NCBI GenBank assembly: GCA_000002445.1
Contig: CH464491.1
Location: 2,720,001 to 2,784,000 of the forward strand
DNA from: Trypanosoma brucei
Lineage: Eukaryota
Reading direction: 5' to 3'
DNA: 64,000 nucleotides
The notes under the pieces are model-generated. The model saw nothing but the letters and a program-made list of their open reading frames with translations, did not search any database and was not told the DNA's origin. Of this stretch, positions 11,661 through 61,936 are shown piece after piece; positions within the stretch are counted from its first letter, which is position 1; the number at the start of each line of letters is the position of its first letter. A program made the position numbers and the translations under genes.

Positions 11661-11748
11661 GTTAAACTTTAGGAGTGACGGAAGAAAAAAAGTATTTGCA
11701 TTTGTTAAGGAGGGAAGGGAAAGACAAAACACGAAAAAGGTAAAGGTA

Positions 11749-15522: not shown

Positions 15523-15575
15523 CGGTCTCTTTTATTTGGTTTCGTCTCCGTTATCCCTTTTTTACCTTGCGGGGC
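15523..15575 (+). promoter_or_regulatory. Polypyrimidine tract, a candidate trans-splicing signal for the WD40/UTP21-like gene
   Basis: tctcttttatttggtttcgtctccgttatcccttttttaccttgcgg lies about 110 nt upstream of the ATG at 15683. Confidence 0.45.
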
Positions 15576-15682
15576 TAGTTGTTGGGGCCACTATTTCGAT
15601 ATTCCCCTCTCAGTGGATGGAGAGCTTCTCCCCATTTCGTGTGGTCGGAAGCGTATGTGGTGAGCTGCCAGTCAGTAGCACA

Positions 15683-23417: not shown

Positions 23418-24284
23418 ATGCTCCGTCGCAGTGGTTGCTTCCTCAACATGGGGCTGGGGGACGAGTACGTGAAAAAGGTGTTCAACAGCGTGGCCAGCAA
23501 GTATGATATGATGAACGATGTTCTTTCGCTTGGCATACACCGCCTGTGGAAGCGCGAATTTGTCCGTGACTACGTACGACCGTGCCCTGGTGGATCGTAC
23601 GTTGACGTCGCTGGAGGTACTGGCGATATTGCCTTTCGCATAATTGATGAAGTGCGCCAGTTGGAACGGGGACTTCCAGGCCTTACACCTCCCGACTTTC
23701 GAGGAGTTGGTGTGACGGTTGTGGACATTAATGAACAGATGGTTCACGAGGGAGAGGCCCGGGCAGCACGGGAAGGATATGATGGTTTGGAGTGGATTGT
23801 CGCCAGCGGGGAGGAGCTTCCGTTGGATGACATGCAGTTCGATGGCTACACGGTATCGTTTGGCCTGCGGAATTTCAGTGACAGGCCGAAAGCCCTTCGA
23901 GAAGCGCATCGAGTGCTGAAAGTGGGTGGTGTACTGAGCGTGCTGGAGTTTAGCAAAGTCACGTGCTCGCTGCTGCGCGTGCCTTACGACGTGTGGTCTT
24001 ACGGTTTCATTCCACAAGCCGGCCGGATTTTGGCAAATGAGGAAAGCTATAGGTACCTTGTGGATAGCATTAGAGCCTTTCCCGATCAGGAGACCCTCGC
24101 AGAGATGATTCGGGAGGCGGGATTCGGTTACGTGAGGTATGATAATCTCTCTGGCGGAATCGCATGCGTACACACCGCAGTAAAAACGGAGGCTGTTCCA
24201 ATACATAAACCTAAGTCAGAGGTAGAAAACGCTATGGCGCAACAGGAGCGAGTGGTAGAAGACAGTAAAGTGGGGGCTGCATAG
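23418..24284 (+). CDS. COQ5: 2-methoxy-6-polyprenyl-1,4-benzoquinol methylase (UbiE/COQ5 family SAM-dependent methyltransferase; ubiquinone biosynthesis)
   Basis: Family N-terminal signature FNSVASKYDMMNDVLSLGIHRLWKR. SAM-binding motif I at VDVAGGTGDIAFRI. Post-I/II/III motifs EELPLDDMQFDGYTVSFGLRNFSDRPKALREAHRVLKVGGVLSVLEFSKV are typical of UbiE/COQ5. Confidence 0.9.
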   Translation: MLRRSGCFLNMGLGDEYVKKVFNSVASKYDMMNDVLSLGIHRLWKREFVRDYVRPCPGGSYVDVAGGTGDIAFRIIDEVRQLERGLPGLTPPDFRGVGVTVVDINEQMVHEGEARAAREGYDGLEWIVASGEELPLDDMQFDGYTVSFGLRNFSDRPKALREAHRVLKVGGVLSVLEFSKVTCSLLRVPYDVWSYGFIPQAGRILANEESYRYLVDSIRAFPDQETLAEMIREAGFGYVRYDNLSGGIACVHTAVKTEAVPIHKPKSEVENAMAQQERVVEDSKVGAA

Positions 24285-38336: not shown

Positions 38337-40430
38337 ATGCTGTTCAAACCTCGTGGTGTCACCAGCAACGATCCAAGATATGCTGGCGGGTCGCGGCTAA
38401 TGTCTGTGTCGGATCTTCTTGCGTACCGTGACACGTGGCGCGGGCGACCACCTACTGAGAGTTTTTCACTAGCCCAAATTCTACGAGATGCACGCGCAGC
38501 GGATTGTAAGCCCGTTGTGACAGAAAAACTTGTCATGTCGGAGAACGGCTTCAAGGTTAAGTCCCGTGACTCAATTGATTCGTTAGAGCGTGGCGTAAGA
38601 GCAGTGCAATCTGCCCTCAACAAACTCACTGAATGGAATTTTGACGTGGTAGTGCAGACGGTTCTCACGCCAGATATTATTATAAACAACGAAGTAGTGA
38701 AGGATGTTGTTCGCCTTATTTACGAAAAAGCCCTTATGGAGCCGGTGTTCGCTGGGCTCTACGCGCGGATGTGCTTTTCAATTGTTCGTTTTGAATATGA
38801 GTACCGTACTAAGTTTCTTCCGGGAACGTGTCAGGTTCCCAGTGCCGTGCGTGTGGCAATCGTAGAGAAATGCCAACAAATGTTTACTAACGCGGTAGAG
38901 GAATCCAAGCAAACCATGTCGGAAGAGCAGGCCGAGAGGCTGCGAAAAAGGAATGTGAACAATATCAAATTTGCTGGTGAGCTCTTTCTTAAAACACTCA
39001 TCACGCAGAAGATCATTGATCGTATTCTGAACGAAAGAATATATGAAATGGTTCCCAACGATATGGAGCTGGAGGTGATAATTAACCTCTTGGAGGTTGT
39101 TGGTAAATTATACGAAGAAAAGAATCCGGACGCACAAGAACAGCTGTGGAAAATGCTCTCTAGCATGCAGGAGAATCGGCGCTACTCCATGCGCATACGT
39201 TTTCTCCTCCAGAACCTCATTGATCGACGTAACGGTGGATGGAAACCGCGAGAACCAGAACAAGTCGTTATCGAGGATATTCAATCTCAGCAGCAACCTC
39301 AACAGCAGTCTCAACAGCAACAGCAACAACAACAACAGCAGCAATCTCAACAGCAGCCTCAACAGCAACAGCAACAAGGTCAGAAGCACTATTCCCAACA
39401 ACAACGACACCAGCAAAGTTTCCCACACCACAACCAACCTCAGTCACATGGAGGATATCACCAGCATCCGCCACCGCCGCCACCACCGCCACGTAACTCC
39501 GAATACCAACACACGCCGGGGATGAAGCGAGGTGGCAGCTATCATGAAGTTTCGAGCTCACTTGGAATGGGTGGGCGGTGTTCCCAGAGTACCAATGATC
39601 TTACACGTGGTGGATCATATAACAATATGCCACCACCGGCCCATGGTTTCTCCGACTCTCGACTCGCACCGGAGGAAAGAAAGCGGTTAAACTTTGCTCG
39701 CCCCCCTGCGCAACTGCTTGAAGAGTTTAAGAAAAATATTTTGTTTATTGTTCGCGACGCCGCCGAAGAGGGAATGGCGGATCCTGAGGGGATGAAGGTG
39801 CAGTTGAATGCCCTAGTACCGCAGGATAGTAACGCTCCGATCAGTGAAGTCAGCGTTTACGTTACTCTCATCCGTGCGCTCATGGACGCAAACGAGAGCG
39901 AACGGAAGCTGTTGCTGAGCGTTCTCCAGAAGGGTTCGTTTGAAAACCACATTCTCACCCGTGGCTTTTCGTGGGCCCTCGCCAAAATCATCTCAGACCG
40001 AGATTGCGATGACTGCCCCCGAATCTATGCTCGCTTCGCCGAGGCAGTCTGGAGCATTCCTTCATTTAACTTTCGCTGCGTTACGAAGGACATTGTGTCA
40101 CGCACTGCCATCCATTTGGGTGCACTTTCTGTAGAATACGAGAGCGAGGGCGAGTGGGAGGAGGATTTTATTGCCGTGTGGGAGAACATTGTCACAGCCA
40201 GCGAAACCGGGCGACAAGGGGAGAGTAAGCCATCTGTGGCTGACATGATGGAAAGTATAGCGCCCTCGTGTACGGTGCCATTCATGTGCAACGTCCTTCC
40301 TGACTTTGTTGCCGTGATGGTCCAGGCTCGCTTTTTCACAGAAGAAGAGCTGGGTGCGTGGCGTAATAAGAACAAGGACAACTCAAAGGTGTTCTCGTTG
40401 TTGGAAGAACTCTCAGTTATATATGCGTGA
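38337..40430 (+). CDS. eIF4G-like translation initiation factor (MIF4G domain protein) with an internal polyQ/H/P tract
   Basis: MIF4G-type HEAT hairpins read as LTPDIIINNEVVKDVVRLIYEKALMEPVFAGLYARMCFSIV...VAIVEKCQQMFTNAV...NIKFAGELFLKTLITQKIIDRIL...LEVVGKLYEE. Then 39287-39380 (CAG/CAA)n encodes about 30 Gln, followed by PPPPPPPPR. Confidence 0.7.
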   Translation: MLFKPRGVTSNDPRYAGGSRLMSVSDLLAYRDTWRGRPPTESFSLAQILRDARAADCKPVVTEKLVMSENGFKVKSRDSIDSLERGVRAVQSALNKLTEWNFDVVVQTVLTPDIIINNEVVKDVVRLIYEKALMEPVFAGLYARMCFSIVRFEYEYRTKFLPGTCQVPSAVRVAIVEKCQQMFTNAVEESKQTMSEEQAERLRKRNVNNIKFAGELFLKTLITQKIIDRILNERIYEMVPNDMELEVIINLLEVVGKLYEEKNPDAQEQLWKMLSSMQENRRYSMRIRFLLQNLIDRRNGGWKPREPEQVVIEDIQSQQQPQQQSQQQQQQQQQQQSQQQPQQQQQQGQKHYSQQQRHQQSFPHHNQPQSHGGYHQHPPPPPPPPRNSEYQHTPGMKRGGSYHEVSSSLGMGGRCSQSTNDLTRGGSYNNMPPPAHGFSDSRLAPEERKRLNFARPPAQLLEEFKKNILFIVRDAAEEGMADPEGMKVQLNALVPQDSNAPISEVSVYVTLIRALMDANESERKLLLSVLQKGSFENHILTRGFSWALAKIISDRDCDDCPRIYARFAEAVWSIPSFNFRCVTKDIVSRTAIHLGALSVEYESEGEWEEDFIAVWENIVTASETGRQGESKPSVADMMESIAPSCTVPFMCNVLPDFVAVMVQARFFTEEELGAWRNKNKDNSKVFSLLEELSVIYA
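39287..39380 (+). repeat. Imperfect (CAG/CAA)n trinucleotide repeat encoding the polyglutamine tract of the eIF4G-like protein
   Basis: Direct reading: cagcagcaacctcaacagcagtctcaacagcaacagcaacaacaacaacagcagcaatctcaacagcagcctcaacagcaacagcaacaa. Confidence 0.9.
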
Positions 40431-43964: not shown

Positions 43965-46610
43965 ATGTCTCAATTTGCGACCCTGTCTGATCAAGAAGGA
44001 ACACACACGCATGCAGCACAGGAAGAGCCTGTCGACTCGGACGCGCATGTGGGGAGTGTCATGCCTGCCGTTGATTTGGAGCAGCTTCAACTCATAGAGC
44101 TGTGCTTTGGCGAGCATGAGTTTGGTGTGGTCCTTGACAGCGATAATACTACGGAGCATGATACCGAAGGCGAATGTATTAGCGCCGGTGCCAACTATGT
44201 CAATGCTTCGGATGACGCGGAGCAGATGGATTTTGAGCATCACAACGAACCCGGTGAAACAATGTTAGCAGCCTTCGAATTTGACCCTGTGCAGTTTGTC
44301 CAGAACAAACTAAGTCATGGTGTGCCACTAGACGATTTGTGCCGGGATCTTGAGACGTATATGTCACTGCTGAACAAGATTATTTTGCGCCACGTGAACA
44401 CGGATGTGCACGACGCTTTTGTAAAGGTGTCTGGACATCTTGTAGGGATGCAAGATGACCTACGCCTTGTGCAGCACCCTGTGGCTGTAGCTGTGAAGAA
44501 GGTAGAAGAAAACATAGCGAAACTCAATGAAATGGAGAATACGGTAACTAGTCAGATCGCAGAGGCAACCGAACTGGAGCTGATGCGTATATTCGACGTG
44601 AACTTCTTAAAGGTACTGTTGCTGTACGATCACCTCTGTGTGCAGCTGGAGGCGCTCCCTCCTGCATTACTCTCTCCAGATGATGAAAGCTCCCTGCGGC
44701 AACGCCACTTTAAGGATAAACCTTCTCGGGCCGTGGCTGTTTCGGCAAGCAGTGAACACCTGCACGAGGCGCTCCAAGACATCTCTGGTTTAGTACGGCA
44801 ACTGAAGTCTCTCAAACACATGATCCCGCCTCTTCCTCAGCGGGGGCAGGAGTGTGCAGAGCTGGATCAAATTTTGAGCAGTGCTTTGCAGATGGTCCAC
44901 CGCGTTCTTGCGCGAGCGTACCTTGCGGTGTATGAGGAATGCACTTTACTTCCTAGTGATGAACTAGAAAAATCACTGTTGAATATTATGCTGGTATACA
45001 AGGCGATGGATGAGGTTCATGAGTTTTGCCGAATGTACCGTGAGCGAATCCTTCGACCACTTCTCGAGTCGGTACTCTCATGGCGCGCTGCTACGCAGGC
45101 ACGCCACAGTTTGGTGGAGACAATAAACCTGCTTAGCACACTCCGACATCGGTTGGAAAAAGACGTCCTGCCGTTTGTTTCGCTGTTGCGTGAGGCATTT
45201 GGTGCAGAACTTTTACCGATCCCAACGGTTGTCTGCCCTATTGTGTTCGAGTCGCTTCTGAAAAGGATGATATCACTTTACGATTCAGGAGACCCAGATG
45301 CCTTTCAACAGCGCTATGTGGCGGCTCATGAGGTGCTCCATCTTATGAAAAAGAATTGTGTTTCGGATGAGGAATTGCGAGCACTGTTGCGATCACCTGA
45401 TGTGGTGTTGTGGGAGCAGAGGTGGAACACAGATGTCTACAGTGCTATGCGAGTGAATGCTCTGACAAAACGGCTGGACGCAGCAATGTCAGAGTTTATT
45501 ACACTAACATCAGAGCAGCATGCGGAAACGATAGATGGGTTACAATTGCGAGAGGAGTCGAACACTGAAGGCACGGTGGCGAAAGTTGTATTCCGCATAG
45601 GTCTTTTCTCTCGGCTGAGGGAACTCATTGAGTGGCTCTTCTCCCCAGAGGTTTACATCTACGTTGTGACACCTAAGTATCTCCGCGAGGTTGCAAACGC
45701 CACTCGCCGTGTCGCAAAGGCCATAATTGAACAGAGCACAGCCACACGCACCGTCAGCTCTTTGCGAGATTGGTTATGCGTCGTGATGACTGCTTGTTCA
45801 GACTTCACACAGCTTGCTGAATACCTTGAGGGTCCATTTAGTAGGCACATATGTACTGTCAGTCAAGATACCCTTACGGGGCCGTCGTGCTCGCAGTTTC
45901 TGCAGTTGCTCGTCCAAGGGACATGTCATGGGACTGTGAAGCAGCTTCATCAACTTGTACAATCACGTGTGGTAGAGACTTGCGCTGTCGGATTGCAAAA
46001 TATTCGCTCTGTCAAGTCAGCCTACGCGCACACACGCAAGCCACTCCCTACAGCACCATCATGGTACGTAACGAGCATTGTTGAGCCTATACAGCGATTT
46101 GCTGAAGAACTTCAACGGGGCCTGTCACCTGAAACATGGCAGGAGGTAATAATTGACGTAGTGACCGATGTGCTGAAGATGTTTCGCAATATCGCAAGGG
46201 ACACACTAGTAACAGCGAAGAAAACAGAGGAGAGCTGGGGGAAACTGAGACGTCGCAAAGAGCTGACGTCTAGTGGTGGTGACGCCCGTACTGGTGGAAT
46301 GGAGACAACAACTCAAGAGGGGGCTTCGTTATCTCCATCTTCTCCCGTCACCGGTACCAGTGCGAACACGCGACCAACAGCGGAGACAGCAACAGATCGG
46401 GACAAGATGACGTTACAATTGTACCTTGATGCTATAGCACTTATTAATAATATCGAAGGATTGCTGGAATCGCAGTGCGATGGTGAGGAAAGTGTCAAAA
46501 TTCGGGAGCTTCCGCCCGTTGAGGCGATTCACAAACTTTTGCAGCGGGCTAAGTGGATACTGGGTGACGATGTGCGGGAGCCCCCGGATATTGACGAAAC
46601 TGACGAGTAG
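43965..46610 (+). CDS. Conserved oligomeric Golgi complex subunit 2 (COG2)-like protein
   Basis: The N-terminal block FEFDPVQFVQNKLSHGVPLDDLCRDLETYMSLLNKIILRHVNTDVHDAFVKVSGHLVGMQDDL follows the COG2 N-domain consensus (FD...F......L..L..DL......L...L..LIN.DY.DFV.LS..LVG.D..). The remainder is long and alpha-helical. Confidence 0.5.
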   Translation: MSQFATLSDQEGTHTHAAQEEPVDSDAHVGSVMPAVDLEQLQLIELCFGEHEFGVVLDSDNTTEHDTEGECISAGANYVNASDDAEQMDFEHHNEPGETMLAAFEFDPVQFVQNKLSHGVPLDDLCRDLETYMSLLNKIILRHVNTDVHDAFVKVSGHLVGMQDDLRLVQHPVAVAVKKVEENIAKLNEMENTVTSQIAEATELELMRIFDVNFLKVLLLYDHLCVQLEALPPALLSPDDESSLRQRHFKDKPSRAVAVSASSEHLHEALQDISGLVRQLKSLKHMIPPLPQRGQECAELDQILSSALQMVHRVLARAYLAVYEECTLLPSDELEKSLLNIMLVYKAMDEVHEFCRMYRERILRPLLESVLSWRAATQARHSLVETINLLSTLRHRLEKDVLPFVSLLREAFGAELLPIPTVVCPIVFESLLKRMISLYDSGDPDAFQQRYVAAHEVLHLMKKNCVSDEELRALLRSPDVVLWEQRWNTDVYSAMRVNALTKRLDAAMSEFITLTSEQHAETIDGLQLREESNTEGTVAKVVFRIGLFSRLRELIEWLFSPEVYIYVVTPKYLREVANATRRVAKAIIEQSTATRTVSSLRDWLCVVMTACSDFTQLAEYLEGPFSRHICTVSQDTLTGPSCSQFLQLLVQGTCHGTVKQLHQLVQSRVVETCAVGLQNIRSVKSAYAHTRKPLPTAPSWYVTSIVEPIQRFAEELQRGLSPETWQEVIIDVVTDVLKMFRNIARDTLVTAKKTEESWGKLRRRKELTSSGGDARTGGMETTTQEGASLSPSSPVTGTSANTRPTAETATDRDKMTLQLYLDAIALINNIEGLLESQCDGEESVKIRELPPVEAIHKLLQRAKWILGDDVREPPDIDETDE

Positions 46611-49135: not shown

Positions 49136-50323
49136 TTGGGACATCTACTCACATTTGTTCACGAAAAGGAGGCGATCACTCCGTTGGGTTGGGGAATTGA
49201 TAGTATTATCACTGATCAGACGTTGGGATCCTTGATGCTTTGTCACAATCGACTGCTGCTAGTAAACAAGCAAACTCAGAAGTATCGTACGAAGTTACGC
49301 TACCGGTTCCGTCAACCGTCTGTTGTGCCGCTACGCCAAACCCTTCAGCAGCGCCACAACACGATCCTGGAAGTTCTGCGAAGACGCAGGATAAACTCCG
49401 GCGATCAGTCTCCCTATCGATACGTGGAGGAACGACTATACTCTAAACCATCGCGACTTGATCGTGAAGGTGTAAAGGTTAACAAAACGTACGCACTGCA
49501 GGGCTTAGGTGATCTGGAGCCTCTCCGGTATGGTGCGAACTTTGGGATTTCTGAAAAGGATGCGTTAAAGTACGAAACCGTGGCCGAAAAAGCGAAGTAC
49601 ATGGAACCACCTATTCCCTACAGCTCCCTCGCGGCTCGGAAGCTAGCCGCTGGTGCGTTGTGGCCTGCTGCGCCAGACCCAGAAGGGATGATAAGCAAGG
49701 AGGTTCGACTACTACGACATGAGTCAAGCATGTCCCCAAGCGCGCGTGCGTTTTCCGAAAGGGTAGCATACCACCTGCGGCGCTCGCTTAAAGCATGTCC
49801 AGGCCACATCGCTGAGCACATCGACTTTACGCAGCTTATCATACAGGAGGTGTTGGGGTCCCGTCGCTCTAAAGAAATATATATTGTTTGGTTTACTGTA
49901 GATCCCGGGGCACGCTTTGAACTGGAGCCGCGTCTGCATCAGCTCAACCACTGGGTACAACAACTTATTATTAAGAGAGTGAAGCGCCGTCCTCATATCC
50001 CACGAGTGACATGGATTTATGATGGCGGAAGGCTTGAGCGTGAGCTACCACGTGATGTTAAGCAGGAATTGCAGAGTTTCGTGGCTGACGCAGCAACAAC
50101 GCTGGAGAGTCGTGTAAAGTACTTAAAGGAACTTGACACAATGAATCAACGTATGAAGGATATACCGTGGTTTATGCCGTACTTGTGGAGCAAAGAGGAG
50201 AAGGCCGCGCGGCAGAAATCCATGCTAGCTGATCTTGAGGAGGTGGAGCGGAGGAAAAATGAACATAGTAGTGGACGAAGTGCACCGCCTCGCATGAGTC
50301 CTCCTCCTCAATTCGTTCGCTAA
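49136..50323 (+). CDS. RbfA (ribosome-binding factor A)-like protein, likely a mitochondrial small-subunit assembly factor. The N-terminus is uncertain.
   Basis: RVAYHLRRSLKACPGHIAEHIDFTQLIIQEVLGSRRSKEIYIVWFTV...LEPRLHQLNHWVQQLIIKRVKRRPHIPRVTWIYDG follows the RbfA KH-like consensus (R.......l.......tvt.V.vS.Dl..A.VYv......L...l......iR..l...l.lr..P.L.F..D). An Arg/Lys-rich presequence-like N-terminal region precedes it. Confidence 0.5.
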   Translation: MGHLLTFVHEKEAITPLGWGIDSIITDQTLGSLMLCHNRLLLVNKQTQKYRTKLRYRFRQPSVVPLRQTLQQRHNTILEVLRRRRINSGDQSPYRYVEERLYSKPSRLDREGVKVNKTYALQGLGDLEPLRYGANFGISEKDALKYETVAEKAKYMEPPIPYSSLAARKLAAGALWPAAPDPEGMISKEVRLLRHESSMSPSARAFSERVAYHLRRSLKACPGHIAEHIDFTQLIIQEVLGSRRSKEIYIVWFTVDPGARFELEPRLHQLNHWVQQLIIKRVKRRPHIPRVTWIYDGGRLERELPRDVKQELQSFVADAATTLESRVKYLKELDTMNQRMKDIPWFMPYLWSKEEKAARQKSMLADLEEVERRKNEHSSGRSAPPRMSPPPQFVR

Positions 50324-50734
50324 GACACGGACATCTGTGTGATTAACCGGATGGGGGGCTCGTTTAGTTTAGCCGCCTATCTGCGCCCTTGGTACAAGTT
50401 ATCGTACTTACCGCGTCTGCGTCGCCTCCGACACACGCGCTCGCGGGTAGACGCGCGCATGATCTCACTGTGCGTGCCAACGTTTCTCTCTATTGTCATC
50501 TTGCTGCGCACAAGTAACGAATACCGAACGTTACAAGTATTTATGCGGGTATGGGGGTGTGAGTGCGGTCAGTTGTTAAGTGGCAGCGCACAGGGGCTGT
50601 TACATATCGTCTCCTATTTTTTCTCCCAACACTTTTTTCCTCTCCCCTCCGTACATTTGAATGAGTAGTACATGAACCTTGCCGCCTGTGCTTGAGCGTC
50701 ACCAAGCAGCAGATAACAAGTCCATCCCGCACCT

Positions 50735-53557
50735 ATGCAATATATTATTCACGACCCACACAACTGCATTGGACCTCAGTTCCATTACAAATCCATCCTA
50801 CGACGAAGGGACGGAACTATCCCCACAGACACATTGATCGCTCGAAATATAGCAGCCAATTCTGTGCCATCTGGCATCGATGGCGCCGTTAACTTAGCTC
50901 AGCACTCGCAGAGGGACGGTTTACCATTGGTGACTAATGGTCACGGCGGGCCCGCATCAAATCGCTCGGCGTCAGTGAAGGTCAAGCAAAGGGGTGAAGA
51001 GGGCTTTCACAAGGTAGAAATGACAAAAGGTAGAAAGTTTCTCACACCAAGACGTGATCCACCGCTTAGTCGCGTCCGTCATGGACTAAAACTGAGGGCG
51101 GCCAGTACGGTTTTTTCAAGCCCACTGCGCAAACTGCGAACTGCTACTGCATCTTTGAGCGAAGGAGAGTCGGGCTTCGCAACGGCTCTGGACGAATTAA
51201 CTGTAAAGCCTATTCACGTGGTCCGATTGCGGGACGTGGATGGACAAGTGCTTGACGTGCAATGTGACTCTGTCGGGGACTCGCCCATAGCGTCACTTAT
51301 ACCTGGAGGTGGCGTAAATGATGGGAGCTGTTTCACTTTACATCTTCTTTACGATGGCGCGCCACCTCTCACAAGTTCAGCTGCCACGACCCCCACAAGA
51401 CATCTAGCAGGTGCAAGTGCTGCCTTCTCCCGCTGGTATCGGTACTCCACAGCCGCAACTCTGTACCTTGCGTTGGTGGATGCGGGATTTTGTGACAGGT
51501 TCGTCCCCCTTCTGTCGGTTCAATGGATTCACTGGAAGGAGCTGCTGCAGCACCAGGTGCACCTTCGGTTGGACCTGATGTCCAATCCACCAACGCGACA
51601 CATGTGCTTTCCGTGTCTCGGAAACGGTAAGAATGAAAAGGTACCGGTCGCTGTGTCCTTACCGATGACAATGAAGGGTAAGCTGCGGCGTATCTACAAC
51701 TGCGGAGTCCCACCATCCATTTGCTCTAGCCCATTTACAGACGCTGAGGTATTCCAACTATTTTATATCCAACTTATATTCCGGGCCGCTTATGATGTTG
51801 TATTTAGCGACATGATGCTGGGCGACGATGACGACATCCTTCGGACTGATCGTATAGCTGTGCAGACGAGCGGAAGGCAACCGCTGGCGTTTGAACATCC
51901 AGTTATGGTAGACAAGTGGCTGATGTTTCCTCCAAGGTCAAAGATATTATACTTCACCTGTTTTGACCATGCCGTCATTCCCCACTTCACCTCCCCTGCT
52001 CGTTGGCGCCAAGTAAAGAAGCAGCGTTTGTTTGGTGCGTCACCGCGGCTGCAGTGTCAGGGTACCTTGGGGAAACATGTTGTGACAGAGTGGGCTATGC
52101 ATCGCAACGTCGACGATCCGAAGGATGCACTCGCTGCACTGGAGGAGCTATTTGGACTTTTTGAACCATCCTTTGGTGTTGGTCGAGCCTCTGTGTGGCA
52201 GTCTGCCATCCCCCCACGTATTTACCGTTGCAGCGTAAGTGCTTTCGAACGTCTGCGGGCAAATAATAGTGATTTGGGACCTCTCCTTGTGTGTGCATCT
52301 TGTCCCACAGAGTCGGTGTCTCCAAATAAAAGTAAACCCAGAGAGGAGAAGGAACCAGGGGCTGAGCCTCCAGGTGTGCAGGAACCAGGGGAAGAAGAGT
52401 CTGTAATACAGCGCTGGAGGCAGTACTTGAAATGCGGCGATGTGACAACATTTGAGGGCCCGGTGGACTCAATTAAAATTGTGCGCTACCTCGGGAGCGG
52501 CGGAAGCAGCCTGGTGTATGAAGGCAGGTATGGCCCAAACAGCATTCCTGTGGCAGTTAAATGCTTCATTATCCCATGTGATATGTCCCACGAAGACTAC
52601 GTTAAGGAATCACTGACGAGCGTAGCGTTTCTTCTCTTTTTCAATCAGATGGAAAAGTACGGTATTGGGAAATATATTCATATGTATGATTTTGTGATTA
52701 GCTCCGTGCCTCCCAGCAATATGTCGATAGAGGATCTCAAAACATGTACACGAGTGTCAGATCCCGCCGGTGAGTGGCCGAAACTCTGTTATCTCGCAAC
52801 CACTCTGATGGATGGCGTTATTGGTAGATTTCTCACAGAGGAGGACGACGACTTCGATCCCTGCTACGACACCCTTGTAAACTCTCCACTGTGTGACGGG
52901 GAAATCTTTCAGTTTTTGTATATGCAACTCGTGTTGCGCGCACTGTTCGACTGCACAATACTAGATTTGATGTTAAATGGACAACTTCGTGGGGATAATC
53001 TTGGCTTCGCTCACCTTCGTCGTACCGACACCGACGGAACCTTGATGCAATCGTTCAAGGGTTTGTTCGCCATTTTTCAACCGGATAACGATACGAAGCC
53101 CCAATATTTGTGTTTCCCGGCGAGCACCAACCCCGCCGCAGGCGCGAAAACTTCCTTACGTCTTATCAACTTCATCGATTTTGGACAAGGGAAGCAGCCA
53201 GATCTGCAGGAGCTAACACGACGTGGTCTCATTGGTGAAACCATTGTTGAATCGTGTATTCAAGATGATGGATTTGGCCGTTATTGGCCACTCGACCGCC
53301 TTTATTGTCAATATGTCGATACTAGCGGCAGTGTTGCTCGTCAGGCAGTTGATTGGGGAGCTCACGTAAGTGTTGGCACTCCTGAAGCCTCCGAAGCTGC
53401 AGTGAAGGCGCTGTTTGACATATTTGTTCCGGCATATGGCGTAGACGCCCCAACGGAGGAGGAGCTTGAAGGACACATCATCTTCCGCTGGACACCCGAA
53501 AATGTGGAAAAATTGCGTCGTAGCAGTAGTGAATTGGTCATTCCTCCCATTGAGTAA
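50735..53557 (+). CDS. Protein with two tandem degenerate protein-kinase-like domains (predicted pseudokinase), 940 aa
   Basis: The C-terminal half has LGSGGSSLVYEG (Gly loop), PVAVKCF (beta-3 Lys), ILDLMLNGQL (a catalytic-loop analogue of HRDLKPEN with Lys replaced by Met) and INFIDFGQG (DFG). The N-terminal half carries a paralogous block FQLFYIQLIFRAAYDVVFSDMMLGDDDD aligned to FQFLYMQLVLRALFDCTILDLMLNGQ. Confidence 0.6.
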   Translation: MQYIIHDPHNCIGPQFHYKSILRRRDGTIPTDTLIARNIAANSVPSGIDGAVNLAQHSQRDGLPLVTNGHGGPASNRSASVKVKQRGEEGFHKVEMTKGRKFLTPRRDPPLSRVRHGLKLRAASTVFSSPLRKLRTATASLSEGESGFATALDELTVKPIHVVRLRDVDGQVLDVQCDSVGDSPIASLIPGGGVNDGSCFTLHLLYDGAPPLTSSAATTPTRHLAGASAAFSRWYRYSTAATLYLALVDAGFCDRFVPLLSVQWIHWKELLQHQVHLRLDLMSNPPTRHMCFPCLGNGKNEKVPVAVSLPMTMKGKLRRIYNCGVPPSICSSPFTDAEVFQLFYIQLIFRAAYDVVFSDMMLGDDDDILRTDRIAVQTSGRQPLAFEHPVMVDKWLMFPPRSKILYFTCFDHAVIPHFTSPARWRQVKKQRLFGASPRLQCQGTLGKHVVTEWAMHRNVDDPKDALAALEELFGLFEPSFGVGRASVWQSAIPPRIYRCSVSAFERLRANNSDLGPLLVCASCPTESVSPNKSKPREEKEPGAEPPGVQEPGEEESVIQRWRQYLKCGDVTTFEGPVDSIKIVRYLGSGGSSLVYEGRYGPNSIPVAVKCFIIPCDMSHEDYVKESLTSVAFLLFFNQMEKYGIGKYIHMYDFVISSVPPSNMSIEDLKTCTRVSDPAGEWPKLCYLATTLMDGVIGRFLTEEDDDFDPCYDTLVNSPLCDGEIFQFLYMQLVLRALFDCTILDLMLNGQLRGDNLGFAHLRRTDTDGTLMQSFKGLFAIFQPDNDTKPQYLCFPASTNPAAGAKTSLRLINFIDFGQGKQPDLQELTRRGLIGETIVESCIQDDGFGRYWPLDRLYCQYVDTSGSVARQAVDWGAHVSVGTPEASEAAVKALFDIFVPAYGVDAPTEEELEGHIIFRWTPENVEKLRRSSSELVIPPIE

Positions 53558-54811
53558 AGGTACTGCCTGCCTTTTTCTTTTTCTTTTCCCTCCCCTAGTT
53601 AAACTAAGGTATCAGTAGACGTATTGTCTTCCTCTTTATTCATCCACAGCGCATTATGCTTGGGTACATATCAGTGGTTAGTAATAACCTCAATAAGTCG
53701 GAGATGCATGATGTGGCTTGTAATTGTTTCCCAATGTGATTTTGTTGCCATTTGTACCCTGTTTCTTTTACAACTTTTTTGTTGTTTTCTCTTTCGGTGG
53801 GTAGTGTATTTTTATTTCTTTCTTCCCTCAATGTTCCTCCTTTCTGTTCCTCTCATTCATGGTTTTTAATATCCGATTGTTATCGCTTTGTTTCTCACCA
53901 TTGAAAGAGGAGGGAGGAAGAGGAAAAAAAAAAGCTGTATTATATTCTCCGTTACTGCCATTCATATTACTGATATTTTTGCCAAAACTGCATTCTCCCT
54001 GTTTTTTTTCTTATTTTCCCAACCTCATTTTTTTTCTTTTTTGTTCTTCAGTGGCTCTGTTCGTCTGTTTCTGGAGCTGTGTGTTTGTTTTGTTTTGTTT
54101 TTTGGTATTGCTGTTGTTTTAATTGTTTCGTTCCGTACAGATATGTTCTGAATTCTCAGACGTTATTTCCCCCCTCCGCCTCGCCGCTACAGTTTATGAG
54201 GGGGCGAAACGCGAATGAATTTAATAATATATAAGTAAAAAAAAAATGCAAACGAATGAGCTACACTAACCGACACTAGTTTAGTTTCGGAAAGGACCAG
54301 ATGGCATCAGTAATATTTTTGTTTTTTTTTTTTACTTTGTGTATTATACTTGATAGCACCTTTCCTCCTCTTCCCCGACGAACAAACAAACGGAAAAATC
54401 AATGACCATATAATTAGTTAGTAAATTGATTTTTAAAAAATCAATTAAAAGGGGAAAGAGATTCACCTGTACCGTGTGAATGTTTGAATATTTGCGTGGA
54501 GGAAATAAAAAAAAAGAAAAGGAACCGATGCGTTGGAACCTTTTGCTTGGAGAAACCTCCCCCTTCTCCTCTTCTATCCTTCATCATGTTAAACCGAAAG
54601 AATAAATAAGACAAATGTATGTGTTTTTTTCTTTTTAAAAAAAATGTAGAGATACGTACACTCAAGTTTACATAGCATATTATTTTACATTGATTCATGG
54701 CAAACTTATCGTTTCCTCCGATATTCTTCTTTTATTCAAAAAATAATGATATTTAAAATAGCCAGATGGAAGAAATGAAGTGGAAGTGGAGGAGGGGGAG
54801 ACTTCGTAGTG

Positions 54812-54854
<43 letters not shown>

Positions 54855-54859
54855 TTTGT
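54812..54859. repeat. (TA)n microsatellite, the longest of many in the spacers
   Basis: Direct reading: tatataaatatatatatatatatatatatatatatttatatat. Similar (TA)n runs occur at 807-831, 14399-14416, 15075-15097, 24766-24785, 29489-29511, 38224-38247 and 55233-55250. Confidence 0.9.
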
Positions 54860-55278
54860 TTTACAGCTATAGTGATGTCGTTGCCGCTGCAAAACTTTGT
54901 GTTTCTTTGCAGTGAAACTGCCACAGGCTTTATCTGTGATTGACTGATGTAACTTTTAGTGCTTCTCTCATATATTTGGTTAATTTATCTTTTTTTTCTT
55001 CTGTTCTTTTTTTTTTCTTTTTGGAAGGGGGTTATTCCTCTTGAATTTTGTACTTTGAGAGGAACCTGTGGAGGAAAAAGGAGGGCTCAGTAGATAACCG
55101 TTTCCTTCAACCGGACGCCGAGAAGCTGTAAAAAAGAAAAAAAAGAGAGAAGAGAGAAGGAAAAGAGGTGAAAGAGGCAGGCAGACGGACAGGAAAAGAT
55201 TATAACAAGCAAACACATATATTTGTGAACAATATATATATATATAAATATATTATTTTGTATTCCGTAGTGGCGCTC

Positions 55279-55854
55279 ATGGAGGACGAACCGACTCAAA
55301 TCCTTCTCACCAGAGAACAGTTGGAGCGAAGTGTGGAACGCCTTAGCAAACCCCATTCGCGTGAGGTGAATTTGAAACCACTCTGCAAATCCGTTCGACT
55401 CCCACAAGAGGCGAGGGAGCGCAGTATTAAACATCTTTACAATGATTCCATGGAGCACAAGGAAAGACGGCTCCGTGAGATTGAGCAAAGCCTCAATGCA
55501 GAAATAGAAAAGTACCACGCGGGGAAACCAAAGCTCGACTCGGCGGATACGGAGGGTTTAGTATCGCGTCTGTATAATGAATCCATTCAGCGAAAGAATG
55601 ATAATTTAAGACAGTTGTTTGAGCACCAGGTTTCCCTCTCACGCCCTAAAGAAAAGAAACTGAAAAAGGCAGAGCAGCAGGAGTTTGTTACACGCCTTTA
55701 CCAAGGAGGTATGGAACATAACCGAAAGAAACATATTGCATTATTTGAGGAACATGTCTTGGCGAGAGAACCAAAAATGGCGCAGCGAAGTCCGGAGGAT
55801 CTCGAGATTGCTTGTAGTAAACTAACAAGTGGCAAGAGTGTTACCGATGACTAA
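55279..55854 (+). CDS. Small hypothetical protein with three internal repeats (about 190 aa). The ORF-track start at 55168 lies in a purine-rich spacer; the start is taken as the ATG at 55279.
   Basis: Three related segments: HLYNDSMEHKERRLREIEQ, RLYNESIQRKNDNLRQLFEHQ and TRLYQGGMEHNRKKHIALFEEH. Confidence 0.45.
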   Translation: MEDEPTQILLTREQLERSVERLSKPHSREVNLKPLCKSVRLPQEARERSIKHLYNDSMEHKERRLREIEQSLNAEIEKYHAGKPKLDSADTEGLVSRLYNESIQRKNDNLRQLFEHQVSLSRPKEKKLKKAEQQEFVTRLYQGGMEHNRKKHIALFEEHVLAREPKMAQRSPEDLEIACSKLTSGKSVTDD

Positions 55855-56964
55855 CTCTGCTGCATGCTTGAATGGGGAAAAAAAAAATCCAACAAAAAAG
55901 AAAAGGAGGGGAAGAAAGGAAATGGAAAGATACGGTTGCTGTAGGAAGAAGTGCAAAGTGACAGCAGGCAGCAAAAAAGAAAAATAGGAGGGAAAAGTGT
56001 CAATTGAAGTATTATGTATAAACAAGGAATGAAAAGAGAAGAAGTTAGTGTCGTATACGTAACCACTCAGAAAAGGGGTTACCGCTGTTACTACGACTAA
56101 AATTAGGCTATGTTTCCGTACTTGCATGTGCGTTTTTTTTGTGTGTGTGTGAGAGCACATGATTGTATATGATTGTGTTTTTGTATTTATTTATTATCTC
56201 CTCCACCCATTATTCACCTTTTTAATAACTAACGCAGTTAGAGCCTACCACTATTTCTTTGTGGATATTTTGGTATGCCCTGCGACTACGCCATTTCACC
56301 TTTAGAATCAGTTTGCCAATGGGTTTCTTTTTTTTCCATCCTCTGACTCAACGCATACATCCGGTTTGTCACGAGCATTTGTCACCTTCGCATGACTTTA
56401 TTGTTCGAATTGCTAATCATCTAAATGAATAAGTTTGTTACTGTTGGTACTCTGTATCTTTTTTCTTCCCTCTTTTTTTTTTACTTCCTTTTGTGTTTCT
56501 TGTATTTCTACCTGAAGCATAACACTAGTTCATCCAGTGCACGAAGTTTGAAAGGTGATTAAGGATTAGTTCACTCACCGCTGTTCAGTGCGCACACGCC
56601 TGTACTTTTTCACGTGCAAATGTGATGTGAGGGAGTTGAAGAGGGGAAGAAAAAGAAATATGAGGGGACATGTTGGATTTGTGCCGGTACACACTTACGT
56701 TGGAAAGTGTCATGCGTACCGCTGTGGCTGCTCGGTGCAATACACGTTTGAATGGTAATTTTTGCCTATTTTGTTATTGCTTGCTGGTGTTATTAATAAT
56801 GCTATTTATCGAGTAAGTAAATTTTTTGCGTCATTTTTCCCTTTTTTCAGTATTCCATTTGCTGCACTTATCCTTCTATCTCCTTTCCTCCCCCCCCCCT
56901 CCCGAATGTTCAAATCAACATTGTTCTGACGCAATTTCCGGAGCCACTGAAACGGAAATATTAC

Positions 56965-59661
56965 ATGAAAGTTATTACACATGAGCAAGTAGCGATGTGG
57001 CTACGTGACCATCAATGCCCCATGACTTCGTTGGAACTTTACTACGAATGGCAAGACGTGCATCATGAATTATTTCCTGCACCTCTGGTGTTTGCAGACA
57101 TGGATGGATGTGCCGCTGCGCTAACCATAAGCGCTGGTACTGTCAATATTGGCATGATGAACACACTTGTGGAGCAAAGCGTAGTGAATATGCTGCTGCT
57201 CTATAAGAGGCGGTGCGGAGCCGCTGCCGTCGCAGAGGCTGTCAAAAAAGTGATGCTGCAGTCGGAAGTGCCTGACGTCTCCGCTGAGTCGAACGTTACA
57301 AGTGGGGGTGGATCCGCAACTTCGAATACACGAGTGGTGGAGGTTGAAGATCATGGGGAAGCGCAATTGAGCCGCGTGGCGAAAGCTGAGGAAGAACTTT
57401 CAACGGTAACCTCGGTTCTTTCTGAACAACTGCCAACGCTTGTTCATGCGGTAGATCCTCTACAGAAAGATTGTCTCATTCCACTAATCAGCCTTTCTGC
57501 TACAATTAGCAGCAAGAAGAATGATCGAGTGGCGGCGCGTCTTCTTCTTCTTTCGTTGTACCTTCGCCCCAACGCCGAACACCGATCAGTAGTGGCAGGG
57601 GCTTGGGTCAGAACGCTTCAACATACACCGCGTACAGTTATGCGCCACGAAGTAATACCTGAACTCTACAATTTGGCAAACGCAAGGGCCGCAGAGCGAA
57701 GGATTTTGGCGCTAACGTGTCTCGAGTCTTTAGTCCAACTCATGGGGGAGCAAGAGGAAGATATAGTTTTTCGGCAGGCAATCTGTGAGGGCTTACTACT
57801 ACCTCTTAGTGAAGACGAGTCAAAAACTGTGCGTTACCACGTAGTGCGGTGCCTGACAGCGCTTTGGCCAACGTGCCCAAGCATAGACTTGGTTGGTGGT
57901 GTACAGTGCAATGATGAAGTGACAGAATGTCACTCCAGGTTTCTGGAGCTTCACGCGCGTTTGATGCTACACGACACCAGCGCTACCGTCAGGCGTCGAG
58001 CACTCAGAAGTATGCGTGAAAGCATCATTCCTAACCTTAAGCCACGTGTTATGTTACTCACGCATTTTATTCCGTTATTTCTGTCCCTTGTCAACAGGGA
58101 GGTGCTTGCTAGGACAAACCACGGGAAGCCCATGCCCTCCGGCTCTCACGCTACGGATATTGTAACCTCACATACCACCGCGAATGTGCTCGATGCTACG
58201 GACGAAAGTGCTGACCGAACCATCACATTACTTGCAACTCTCATTGGTGATGCGCTCACCCATTCACGAGAAGACGTTGAGGAAAGGGATGTACCGTGCG
58301 CGCGGAGTGCTTTTGCTGAAAGAAGTGGGGGTGTCCCCGGAAAGCCGGTTGTTTCCGCCGCGGTGATCAATGCTTATTTGGATGTGGTACTACCCACAAC
58401 GCGTTCGCTTCTTTTAGACCTCCACGAACACGAGACGTTGTATTCATGTGCCTGTGCCTTGGCTTCGTCGCTTGCCAGGATGGTTTCCTCTTTTAGTACA
58501 ACCGATTGGAAACGTGCGCGTGAGATGCTTCTGCTCATCATAGCGGGACGGGACGGCAGTGATGCTACCGGATGGGAGGATGCCGCCGGTGCAGGGGCAG
58601 GCAACTCAACAGTAAGCAGAGAGACCCATAAGCGATGCCTGTGTTTTTTTATAACGTTTTTAACTTGTGTGGCGGGTTTGCAAGACAAGGATGCAGGTGC
58701 TAACTCCGCTGATGTGCGAGACATCGTGAACGACGCTACCGCGCTGATGCGCGATACCATAGTTACAGGGAAAACGGAGGAGGAAGAAGAGAGGAAAAGA
58801 GTGGTGTTTCATGCTGATGCCAGGAACCGACATGATGTGTGTGGCTTTGCCTTCACATACCTCATGGCGTGCACAGATGAACCGGGTAAAACAACTGGGG
58901 CTTCGGCTGTTCTCTCCGCGTTAAACTCCCTCGCACAATCACCCGATGTTCCGGAACGCGTACTTGCACTTGCGTTGGTGGAACGTGTCAGCGCCTTAAT
59001 GGAAGACGACGGGGCACAAATGAAATACTTGTGGCCAGCGGTGCATCCCCTGATGTACGACAAGGTATTTGAAGTGACTGAGGCGGCAGTAAAGACAGCC
59101 GTCTCGATGGTGGCATTCATAACCAAACCAGAAGATCAGGAGGAGGTGCTTCAGAAGGTGTTGGACACCGTGAAAGCCGAAGGATACCTCTCGCGTCTCA
59201 GCGTTGTGTTTCTACTACACTGGTGCTCGCTCATGCGAATAATAGCTGCCGAACCGCGTGAGCAAATTCTGTACAATTACTTGGCAACGGTAGCTCAACA
59301 GTTGGCCAAAACACTGAGCCCTACTGCTGTCGTGCCCGCGGAACGATCGGGCGTGACGGGTCGATGTACAGTGGTTAGCGTCGCGGGATCTATGGAGATA
59401 CAAGAGGTTTTGCAAGCTGTGCTCACTGTCCTTGCTGCGATCCCCCATTGTGCTGTAGTAACACCCCAATTGGTAAGGTCATATCTTATTCCGAGTATCA
59501 GACTTTTGTTGGCGGTACCGTCACTTTCAGAATCTTGTCGAGTCCAGTTGAACAACATCACAAAAGAGTACGAGGCATTGCTCTTGTCAAGTGGAAAGAA
59601 GCTTCACAGTGAAGGAGGATTCTTTGAACGAATACGCAACGAAATAAAGAGGCGCTTTTAG
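56965..59661 (+). CDS. Large alpha-helical (HEAT/ARM-like) repeat protein, hypothetical
   Basis: 898-codon ORF built from repeated amphipathic helix pairs (for example ...VRYHVVRCLTALWPTCPS..., ...VRRRALRSMRESIIPNLKP..., ...ERVLALALVERVSALMEDD...). No catalytic motif. Confidence 0.5.
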   Translation: MKVITHEQVAMWLRDHQCPMTSLELYYEWQDVHHELFPAPLVFADMDGCAAALTISAGTVNIGMMNTLVEQSVVNMLLLYKRRCGAAAVAEAVKKVMLQSEVPDVSAESNVTSGGGSATSNTRVVEVEDHGEAQLSRVAKAEEELSTVTSVLSEQLPTLVHAVDPLQKDCLIPLISLSATISSKKNDRVAARLLLLSLYLRPNAEHRSVVAGAWVRTLQHTPRTVMRHEVIPELYNLANARAAERRILALTCLESLVQLMGEQEEDIVFRQAICEGLLLPLSEDESKTVRYHVVRCLTALWPTCPSIDLVGGVQCNDEVTECHSRFLELHARLMLHDTSATVRRRALRSMRESIIPNLKPRVMLLTHFIPLFLSLVNREVLARTNHGKPMPSGSHATDIVTSHTTANVLDATDESADRTITLLATLIGDALTHSREDVEERDVPCARSAFAERSGGVPGKPVVSAAVINAYLDVVLPTTRSLLLDLHEHETLYSCACALASSLARMVSSFSTTDWKRAREMLLLIIAGRDGSDATGWEDAAGAGAGNSTVSRETHKRCLCFFITFLTCVAGLQDKDAGANSADVRDIVNDATALMRDTIVTGKTEEEEERKRVVFHADARNRHDVCGFAFTYLMACTDEPGKTTGASAVLSALNSLAQSPDVPERVLALALVERVSALMEDDGAQMKYLWPAVHPLMYDKVFEVTEAAVKTAVSMVAFITKPEDQEEVLQKVLDTVKAEGYLSRLSVVFLLHWCSLMRIIAAEPREQILYNYLATVAQQLAKTLSPTAVVPAERSGVTGRCTVVSVAGSMEIQEVLQAVLTVLAAIPHCAVVTPQLVRSYLIPSIRLLLAVPSLSESCRVQLNNITKEYEALLLSSGKKLHSEGGFFERIRNEIKRRF

Positions 59662-60217: not shown

Positions 60218-61936
60218 ATGTTTCTCATCAGCTGGAATGTGGCGGGGTGGGGCTCCACAGCTCGTCTGATACGGAGCGACTTTGGTACCATCGCGGAATT
60301 TTTGCGCCACACACAAGCTGATATTGTATGTTTACAGGAGGTAAAGGGCTCGTGGCAGAAGCTGAAAGATGAGCCATATGCAATGGGCGCTGGTGACGGT
60401 AGGCCCGTGTCCGTCGAGGGATGGGAATCGTTTTGGTCCTTCAGTGGTAGAGGCCAGCGTGGCTTTAATGGCGTTGCGACATTTGCTCGCAAGGGGCTTA
60501 CGTGGTGGTGTGACTCACGACCTTTTATTGAGGCGGATGACAAGGAAGGCAACAGTAGCCCCGATGCAAGCGACAAAAAGACGAGCACTGTGGAGGAACT
60601 GCACGATGAGGGTCGTGTGCTGGTGACGGGCCACAGCGCCTTTGTATTGGTTAACACCTACGTTGTGAATGGACGCAACAGTCAGAGAATGGCATTCAAA
60701 ATGAGGTTCCTTTCATGCCTAAAGAGCCTTCTTGCACGGTTGAAGAAGGAAAACGGGAAACCTGTTATCTTGGTTGGAGACCTCAATATAACTTTTCGGG
60801 CGGAAGATTCGCACTGGTCCCAACGTCGCCTTGGTTTTCCCTCCTTCATGCGACTCGTTCATCTTGCACGAAGCCTCAGCAATGACGAGTGGAAGCAGAG
60901 CTATCCATATATTGGGCAAGATACGGTGTGCCACCTAGAGGGATACATTGCGGAACAAACATTGCAATTTCTTGTTGACGAAAGTGACGATCCGCACCCA
61001 AACGACGGAAGGTGTGCTCGCGTTGATAATCTGTTCTCAGGCCTTACAAAGGAATGCAAGACTACGGTCACCATTGATGGTAACCACTTGCTACAAGAAC
61101 TCGTACAGAAGGGTCGAGAGTTAAAGTATCATCAAAACAAGGGTAGTGGGGCGAGGGTAACGCTGTCGGAGTTGTGTGAGGCGGGTGTTACGAGTGTCTT
61201 TGCCAGTACACTCCTTCGAATGCAGCAGACGAACCACAATCGGGATATATTTGTTTTAGTGCAGTATTGTGGTTTGCCCTCGCACGATGAAGCAGGTGTG
61301 GAGTTCATGAAAGAGCTGCTGGTCGATTTGAACTTGCGTGACACAATGTTGGTGGGGCTTACTCCTGAGGCACTTAATGATGTTTGTCCGTGCCCGTACA
61401 CGTGCTGGGATCAATCGAAAAATAAACGAGTGGTAAACGAGGGTAATCGCATAGACTACATTTTGATTGATGCGTCGCTAGCGCCAAAATTGGCTCCATG
61501 CCGCGATACGGAGAATAACGTTGTCCGCACATTATCTGAGGGCATTGGACACGCGGGTGAAGACAACGGTAAGAAGGTGGTCGTGGACGGTTGTGAGAAC
61601 ACATCGTCACCCTTTTTCAGTGAGTTTGACGGTGCATCCCATTTGCTTGGCGTACAACGTACAGCGGGGCACGGGGCGTACCCCGCAGCAGCTATGGACG
61701 GTACAGGTCTTCCACCCCTAAAGAAGGAGGCGAGGGACCTGCAGTTTCGTGGACTTCCATCCACCGGCTTATTTGTAACACCACCTCAATACAGCGACCA
61801 TTGCGGCGTATGTGCGTACTTTCCGGATCTGTTGTTGGAACCCAGGCCCGCAAAGGTGAAGGAGATACACCCTTGTTTGTATCGACTTCCAGCATCTTTG
61901 GAATCGTTCTTCCAAAAGCGGCCAAGAAGTGAATAA
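60218..61936 (+). CDS. AP endonuclease of the exonuclease III / endonuclease-exonuclease-phosphatase family, with large insertions
   Basis: N-terminal ISWNVAGW...ADIVCLQEVK (APE1: SWNVDG...DILCLQETK), GVATFARKG, VNTYVVNG, VGDLNIT, NRIDYILID and the C-terminal YSDHCGV (the SDHCP catalytic His motif). The spacing between these motifs is much longer than in APE1/Xth. Confidence 0.8.
   Translation: MFLISWNVAGWGSTARLIRSDFGTIAEFLRHTQADIVCLQEVKGSWQKLKDEPYAMGAGDGRPVSVEGWESFWSFSGRGQRGFNGVATFARKGLTWWCDSRPFIEADDKEGNSSPDASDKKTSTVEELHDEGRVLVTGHSAFVLVNTYVVNGRNSQRMAFKMRFLSCLKSLLARLKKENGKPVILVGDLNITFRAEDSHWSQRRLGFPSFMRLVHLARSLSNDEWKQSYPYIGQDTVCHLEGYIAEQTLQFLVDESDDPHPNDGRCARVDNLFSGLTKECKTTVTIDGNHLLQELVQKGRELKYHQNKGSGARVTLSELCEAGVTSVFASTLLRMQQTNHNRDIFVLVQYCGLPSHDEAGVEFMKELLVDLNLRDTMLVGLTPEALNDVCPCPYTCWDQSKNKRVVNEGNRIDYILIDASLAPKLAPCRDTENNVVRTLSEGIGHAGEDNGKKVVVDGCENTSSPFFSEFDGASHLLGVQRTAGHGAYPAAAMDGTGLPPLKKEARDLQFRGLPSTGLFVTPPQYSDHCGVCAYFPDLLLEPRPAKVKEIHPCLYRLPASLESFFQKRPRSE

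Follow-up and report, generated by a model that had tools for sequence, protein, structure and literature searches.

Proteins that carry two kinase folds in a single polypeptide are well represented among the described tandem kinases: GCN2 combines a pseudokinase with a kinase, RSK and MSK have two active kinase domains, and plants possess tandem kinase-pseudokinase resistance proteins. In the JAKs, the pseudokinase JH2 precedes the kinase JH1. Here we describe a protein of Trypanosoma brucei that recalls these systems, encoded on the + strand at positions 50735 to 53557 of a 64,000-nucleotide stretch of contig CH464491.1 (positions 2,720,001 to 2,784,000), which we refer to as the window. It is like GCN2, RSK/MSK and the plant proteins in its general architecture of two kinase folds in one polypeptide, one of them possibly inactive, and differs from them in that the Pfam Pkinase model detects both of their domains and neither of its own, and in having no accessory domains. 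The likeness to JAK JH2-JH1 is that in both cases internal duplication has given two paralogous kinase folds per chain, with the dead copy placed before the one in which the active-site residues are retained. A preliminary description of the locus, which presented it as a candidate dual pseudokinase, drew this comparison, and it holds for the domain order, pseudokinase followed by kinase-like domain, but not for a FERM-SH2 module, as no Pfam domain is found in residues 1–150 or elsewhere, nor for any sequence relationship to JAKs. The duplication is moreover independent, having taken place within Euglenozoa, and the C-terminal domain is without the HRD and APE (Ala-Pro-Glu) motifs and does not belong to the canonical Tyr or Ser/Thr kinases. 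The family is an independent instance of a JAK-like, pseudokinase-then-kinase architecture.

The fold and the internal duplication are near certain. As to what the two copies do, we somewhat favour the reading that the N-terminal copy is a dead pseudokinase and serves as an intramolecular regulator or docking module, and that the C-terminal one is an atypical kinase-like domain, probably able to bind nucleotide and perhaps active.

The motifs noted in the preliminary description were all located in the protein (GSGGSSLVYEG at residues 587–597, PVAVKCF at 605–611, ILDLMLNGQL at 742–751 and INFIDFGQG at 811–819), as were the two blocks considered there to be paralogous, FQLFYIQLIFRAAYDVVFSDMMLGDDDD at residues 340–367 and FQFLYMQLVLRALFDCTILDLMLNGQ at residues 725–750. 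Self-comparison by blastp, Smith-Waterman alignment and hhalign bears out this paralogy and supports an old internal duplication of a kinase-like fold. By blastp, residues 328–514 of the N-terminal half match residues 713–934 of the C-terminal half with E = 8e-12, and Smith-Waterman alignment of the two halves scores 134, compared with 34.3 ± 4.7 (maximum 62) for 1000 shuffles (z = 21). Comparison by hhalign of Trypanosoma ortholog alignments of the halves gives 98.8% (E = 5e-17), and family-wide alignments give 99.6% (E = 8.5e-25) over 282 columns. The alignment of the repeats is co-linear from the N-lobe, where DGS.F.L faces GGS..VY and a helix faces an alphaC-like helix, through to the last helices; its N-lobe part is weak, and those segments are not significant in the single-sequence comparison (z = -0.7).

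Family profiles and predicted structures provide further insight into the nature of the repeated fold. With a C-type profile (that is, of the C-terminal repeat, the N-terminal one being N-type) made from 16 diverse family members, a search of PDB sequences finds ABL1 at E = 3.3e-4, and all 60 of the 60 matches listed are kinases; the ABL1 alignment pairs K609 with the beta3 Lys and E625 with the alphaC Glu. Among the PDB profile searches significance is reached only with this family-wide profile: a Trypanosoma-only profile stays below threshold (E >= 0.09), and a single-sequence PDB search yields only noise (SIDT2 at E = 0.025, Src and Lyn at E > 0.5). When the C-type family is aligned by hhalign to a eukaryotic protein kinase (ePK) profile, for which 23 CAMK-like kinases were aligned around the canonical kinase encoded in the window, the match is at 93.4% (E = 2.5e-7); the confidently aligned part extends from the Gly-loop to VAVK and is just 34 columns long. 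With one kinase sequence as partner only the Gly-loop is recovered. Foldseek searches with the AlphaFold2 model of the C-terminal half return ePKs only (TNIK, MAP4K4, CK2alpha, GAK and PERK), with E down to 1e-4. The C-lobe of the C-type domain would be expected to have a kinase fold by homology to the N-type repeat. The family profile, hhalign, Foldseek for the C-terminal half and the homology between the halves thus support the earlier proposal that both are kinase-like, the N-terminal domain included. An N-type profile finds no kinase among PDB sequences, and its match to ATP synthase beta (E = 0.05) was rejected as chance, as was a Pfam match to GCS2 (E = 0.14–0.23) as meaningless; an NCBIfam search found nothing.

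The two copies have fared very differently at the positions expected of an active site. Counted over 20–22 sequences for the C-type and 17 for the N-type domain, G589 and G590 of the C-type Gly-loop are present in 20/20, K609 in 21/21 and E625 in 18/21; D744 and R752 are each found in 22/22, and G753, D754 and N755 in 21/21, while D815, Q818 and G819 are found in 21/21 and G817 in 20/21. At the equivalent N-type positions there is an Asp at the D744 site in 1/17, an Asn at the N755 site in 0/17 and an Asp at the D815 site in 2/17, and the family alignment has neither a Gly-loop nor a VAxK beta3 Lys in this copy, in agreement with the earlier remark that the N-terminal half has no obvious Gly-loop; it is catalytically degenerate across the family. 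What the N-type copy does keep is D354 (15/17), which matches D739, the L-R-x-D residues L369 (14/17), R370 (15/17) and D372 (15/17), and the alphaE helix and C-terminal helices. The role of L-R-T-D is probably structural, and from these comparisons the residues common to both copies are best read as structural and those kept in the C-type copy only, euglenids included, as a maintained nucleotide or catalytic site, because the C-type residues are near-invariant from trypanosomes to euglenids while the same columns drift in the N-type paralog. The C-type set is also present in a single-domain homolog from Entosiphon and, as far as the fragment reaches (Q-L-R), in a Euglena fragment.

Judged by these residues the N-terminal half is a genuine pseudokinase, and to that extent the designation dual pseudokinase stands; the view that both copies degenerated does not, as the C-type domain keeps the Gly-loop, K609, E625, D744, N755 and D815 invariant or nearly so. 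Within ILDLMLNGQL the Asp is indeed kept, being D744, and the catalytic-loop Lys is indeed absent, but the Asn that had been counted as kept, N748, is variable (N in 12/22, otherwise H, Q, M, S, R or G), and the invariant Asn is N755 in R-G-D-N. The DFG is similarly a feature of the T. brucei protein, most relatives having D-[L/V]-G, so that only the D and G are conserved.

Two registers can be considered for the C-type catalytic loop. In the first, the invariant D744 would be the HRD Asp, as suggested by its position after a short beta6-like strand in the model of the N-terminal half; N755 is then situated directly before the next strand, like the canonical Asn, at a distance of 11 residues from D744 as against 5, with an R-G-D hairpin between them. 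In the second, N-G-Q-L-R-G-D-N would pair with H-R-D-L-K-P-E-N in a low-confidence extension of the hhalign alignment, which puts Q750 at the catalytic Asp; in column 750, 19/22 members have Q, while D and E occur once each. N748 is variable whichever register is adopted. From N755 to D815 there are 60 residues, compared with about 13 in canonical ePKs, and the equivalent stretch of the confidently modelled N-type copy forms two extra strands. D815-x-G817, the putative DFG equivalent, follows a hydrophobic strand and lies beyond the confidently aligned columns. An alternative hhalign match of 'NDTKPQYLCF..IDFGQG' to 'RDLKPENLLF..DFG' was rejected, its probability being 2% and its Asp not conserved.

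Several of our results weigh against a dead copy followed by an atypical, nucleotide-binding kinase-like domain. The Pfam check that had been proposed for each half was negative for both: Pkinase (PF00069) and PK_Tyr_Ser-Thr (PF07714) give no match at E <= 10 with the whole protein or with either half, and with ten divergent relatives the best values are E = 0.33 and E = 0.2 respectively, about 11 bits as against cut-offs of 23–32, with no model reaching E = 0.1. The fold is visible only by family profiles and predicted structure. The model of the C-terminal half is poor overall (predicted local distance difference test score 51, with 60–87 in the N-lobe and <35 in the C-lobe), the confident core of every kinase alignment runs from the Gly-loop to alphaC only, leaving the C-lobe register unfixed, and Foldseek with the N-terminal model finds nothing in the PDB (best E = 2.5). 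It is scarcely credible, in our view, that the protein has no kinase fold and that its Gly-loop, VAVK and DFG are chance resemblances in a lineage-specific protein, which is what the negative Pfam and N-terminal Foldseek results and the low-confidence C-terminal model would suggest if taken by themselves.

The remaining objections concern the C-type active site. The domain is without the His and Arg of HRD, the catalytic-loop Lys and APE; the Q750 register, if true, would make it an ATP-binding pseudokinase, and conservation of site residues also occurs in some ATP-binding pseudokinases. These points would suit a protein in which both domains are dead, the C-terminal one being at most a nucleotide-binding conformational switch and the whole a scaffold, as would the failure of the Pfam kinase models. 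The second register pairs not only Q750 with the catalytic Asp but also R752 with the Lys and N755 with the Asn, and Lys, Asn and DFG Asp can all be retained in ATP-binding pseudokinases. We consider this possible rather than probable: D744 (22/22) and D754 (21/21 scored) are both available and either could act as base, the full residue set is kept from trypanosomes to euglenids and all of it is lost in the paralogous N-type copy, and the alignment is of low confidence in the part that gives the Q750 register.

In the reading that we prefer, of a pseudokinase followed by an atypical nucleotide-binding domain, two extremely divergent kinase-fold domains would have come to lie in tandem by internal duplication, within Euglenozoa and on its kinetoplastid side, and the N-terminal copy would retain structural elements only (the alphaE helix, L-R-x-D and the C-terminal helices). 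The C-terminal copy, with GxGGS, K609, E625, D744, R-G-D-N755 and D815-x-G-Q-G, is likely to bind ATP/Mg. Phosphotransfer is uncertain; if it takes place, D744 (or D754) would serve as base and N755 and D815 as metal ligands, within an enlarged catalytic loop and with an extra beta-hairpin ahead of DxG. The dead N-terminal domain may regulate its neighbour or dock intramolecularly, as JH2 does for JH1; a regulatory role is plausible by analogy with the JAKs. A bolder form of this proposal, which we offer only tentatively, is that the C-terminal domain is an active kinase of new layout, in which the R-G-D hairpin separates Asp744 from Asn755, D-x-G-Q-G serves as metal site and SC..DDG.GRYWP replaces the activation segment, that it is controlled by the dead copy, and that it represents a family, so far met only in kinetoplastids and euglenids, which has been overlooked in trypanosomatid kinome catalogues and in RNA interference (RNAi) screens of the kinome. 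Should the domain prove active, its catalytic loop would constitute a solution new to the kinase fold, with no counterpart in humans.

The canonical T. brucei ePK Tb927.11.10520, which lies in the same window, shares with the protein the N-lobe signature of Gly-loop, VAxK and alphaC Glu, and differs in being recognized by Pfam Pkinase at E = 9.5e-57. Relative to this and other canonical ePKs, the C-type domain has the 11-residue spacing from D to N, the 60-residue insert before DxG, GQG after the Asp, and SC..DDG.GRYWP instead of APE; the last segment is invariant in the C-type copy and not present in the N-type repeat. The presence of so unusual a segment could be taken to indicate an active kinase-fold enzyme with a non-protein substrate (a lipid, sugar or small molecule), comparable to POMK, FAM20B, APH or the choline-type kinases. 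This is unlikely, as the C-type N-lobe is matched best by protein kinases of the ordinary sort (such as ABL, TNIK and CK2), Pfam gives no APH, choline-kinase or RIO signal at E <= 10, and nothing indicates a particular substrate. Haspin has been reported missing from kinetoplastids, and a highly divergent haspin orthologue is another candidate, suggested by a match of the dead N-type domain that has only a small margin over CLK2, RIOK3 and PINK1. Haspins have HRDLHWGN in the catalytic loop and DYT in place of DFG, and the C-type D-L-M-L-N-G-Q-L-R-G-D-N and D-F-G-Q-G match neither; the catalytic loop and DxG context are unlike, and there is no sequence-level link. Haspin is outside the 60 best PDB sequence matches, Pfam Haspin_kinase (PF12330) gives no match at E <= 10, and the best Foldseek matches of the C-type model are TNIK, MAP4K4 and CK2, all of which makes haspin identity very improbable.

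The range of the family was defined with a full-length profile, in an exhaustive HMMER search through 1.84 billion representative proteins (E <= 0.001) that retrieved 29 proteins in total, with no canonical kinase among them. The named trypanosomatid members are from Trypanosoma spp., Leptomonas, Phytomonas, Angomonas and Porcisia, and the named euglenid members are from Entosiphon sulcatum and Euglena gracilis. In almost every full-length member the N-type domain precedes the C-type one. The Entosiphon homolog (P0030, 713 aa) has a single domain, of C-type, and carries the alphaE motif EPFTDAEVFQLLYWQL, the same motif that is now best kept in the N-type copy. The simplest reading is that the family is Euglenozoa-wide and that duplication of its domain took place in the ancestry of the kinetoplastids, bearing in mind that the euglenid sequences are from transcriptomes and could be incomplete. 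Orthologs outside Trypanosoma (P0012, P0014 and P0008, from Leptomonas, Porcisia and JGI, and P0020–P0022) have very long low-complexity insertions, located in the N-terminal region and the inter-domain linker, and reach 1300–2500 aa in total. The EukProt entry P0022, at 3840 aa, has about 1800 aa more after the C-type domain and would seem to be a merged gene model.

The open reading frame (ORF) is complete, with an ATG start, and encodes 940 aa plus stop. The sequence of its product is the same as that of XP_829125.1/EAN80013.1 of T. b. brucei TREU927, and a T. b. gambiense protein is 99% identical to it. The gene is very probably Tb927.11.10610, because the order of genes in the window can be anchored by primers. 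The quantitative PCR primers published for the orphan kinase Tb927.11.10520 (supplement of PMC3894213) match the window exactly at 26609–26627 (+) and 26648–26666 (-), both within the Pkinase ORF at 25125–28907; a MIF4G ORF lies four ORFs downstream of this, consistent with EIF4G4 being Tb927.11.10560, the presumed TbRbfA (Tb927.11.10600) is four ORFs further on, and our ORF is the next one. The coordinates of its features are collected in Table 1.

At NCBI the protein is labelled 'hypothetical protein, conserved', and its automatic UniRef name is 'Protein kinase domain-containing protein', so that the automatic label of protein kinase domain is already public. For the tandem duplication, for an N-terminal pseudokinase, for the pattern of active-site conservation and for the range reaching euglenids we found no prior description, and a search of the literature library yielded no paper on Tb927.11.10610, EAN80013 or XP_829125. 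The 190-kinase T. brucei RNAi library (Jones et al. 2014; PMC3894213 supplement) includes Tb927.11.10520, and no Tb927.11.106xx identifier occurs in its supplements, the identifier of our ORF being itself deduced from gene order. Both the absence from this list and the lack of a paper accord with the preliminary statement that the protein is not any well-characterised kinetoplastid kinase. Any phenotype falls outside the framework of the kinome library, because the gene appears to be absent from it. This matters in that kinases are the main class of trypanosomatid drug target and RNAi and knockout screens depend on catalogues drawn up with standard kinase models; the protein is conserved across Trypanosoma and the other trypanosomatid genera sampled, yet it escapes Pfam. 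The family also constitutes a natural experiment, in which paralogous folds are present in one chain with the site residues frozen in one and drifted in the other, and comparison across it separates structural from functional residues.

Table 1. Positions in the window of the ORF and of the domains and motifs of its product.
Feature	Position	Strand	Basis or remark
Complete ORF	50735..53557	+	Identical to XP_829125.1
N-terminal region, residues 1-150; basic, Ser-rich, poorly conserved	50735..51184	+	Ortholog alignment; outside both domain profiles; no domain detected
N-type repeat, residues ~151-519; catalytically dead pseudokinase-like domain	51185..52291	+	
N-type alphaE-like helix motif PFTDAEVFQLFYIQLIFR, residues 333-350	51731..51784	+	Best-conserved block in the family
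N-type L-R-T-D, residues 369-372; paralogous to C-type L-R-G-D	51839..51850	+	Conservation counts
Inter-domain linker, residues 520-552; acidic, Pro-rich	52292..52390	+	Hundreds of residues in Leishmaniinae-type orthologs
C-type repeat, residues ~553-936; divergent ePK-like domain with conserved nucleotide-site residues	52391..53542	+	Profile, hhalign, Foldseek
Gly-rich loop G587-S-G-G-S-S-L-V-Y-E-G597	52493..52525	+	Aligned to ABL1 GEGQYGEVY, Roco4 GKGGFGLVH
K609, beta3 Lys of VAVK	52559..52561	+	Aligned to ABL1 VAVK, Roco4 VAIK
E625, candidate alphaC Glu	52607..52609	+	Aligned to Glu of ABL1 'FLKEAAV'
Atypical catalytic-loop region D744-L-M-L-N-G-Q-L-R-G-D-N755	52964..52999	+	Conservation; register relative to HRDLKPEN ambiguous
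DFG-like motif D815-F-G-Q-G; family consensus D-[LV]-G-Q-G	53177..53191	+	Conservation
S-C-x-x-D-D-G-x-G-R-Y-W-P, residues 840-852, in place of activation segment/APE	53252..53290	+	C-type only

The ORFs of the window are all on the + strand, as expected of a single polycistronic unit, and the neighbours are therefore uninformative as to the function of the protein. Directly upstream, the ORF at 49136–50323 (+) is TbRbfA (Tb927.11.10600) by gene order, a factor in mitoribosome assembly that a 2026 preprint names; it has no Pfam RBFA or other domain at E <= 10, and its translation probably starts elsewhere than at the listed TTG. Short mechanical ORFs are present between this gene and ours at 50339–50668 (+), and antisense within ours at 51369–51716 (-) and 52095–52472 (-), with no sign of being genes. 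The product of the ORF at 25125–28907 (+), 1260 aa long and recognized by Pfam Pkinase at E = 9.5e-57, is the canonical protein kinase confirmed by the primers as the 'Orphan' Tb927.11.10520; in the RNAi table (PMC3894213), most rows of which say 'No LOF' (no loss of fitness), its entry is 'Day 3 BSF'.

Elsewhere in the window, all on the + strand, are a glycosyltransferase of family 4 at 7816–9051, an arrestin-like protein at 11542–13707, Utp21/WDR36 at 15488–18544, a UbiE/COQ5 methyltransferase at 23418–24284, a MIF4G-domain protein that is probably EIF4G4 (Tb927.11.10560) at 38337–40430, the COG2 subunit of the Golgi complex at 43965–46610, an importin/HEAT-repeat protein at 56965–59661 and a member of the endonuclease/exonuclease/phosphatase family at 60218–61936. 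The G+C content falls to 0.378 at 54001–56000, just downstream of the tandem kinase-like ORF, which is the window minimum as compared with about 0.50 elsewhere and presumably reflects intergenic or untranslated sequence, and there is a second dip to 0.432 at 14001–16000, with an AT skew of -0.25.

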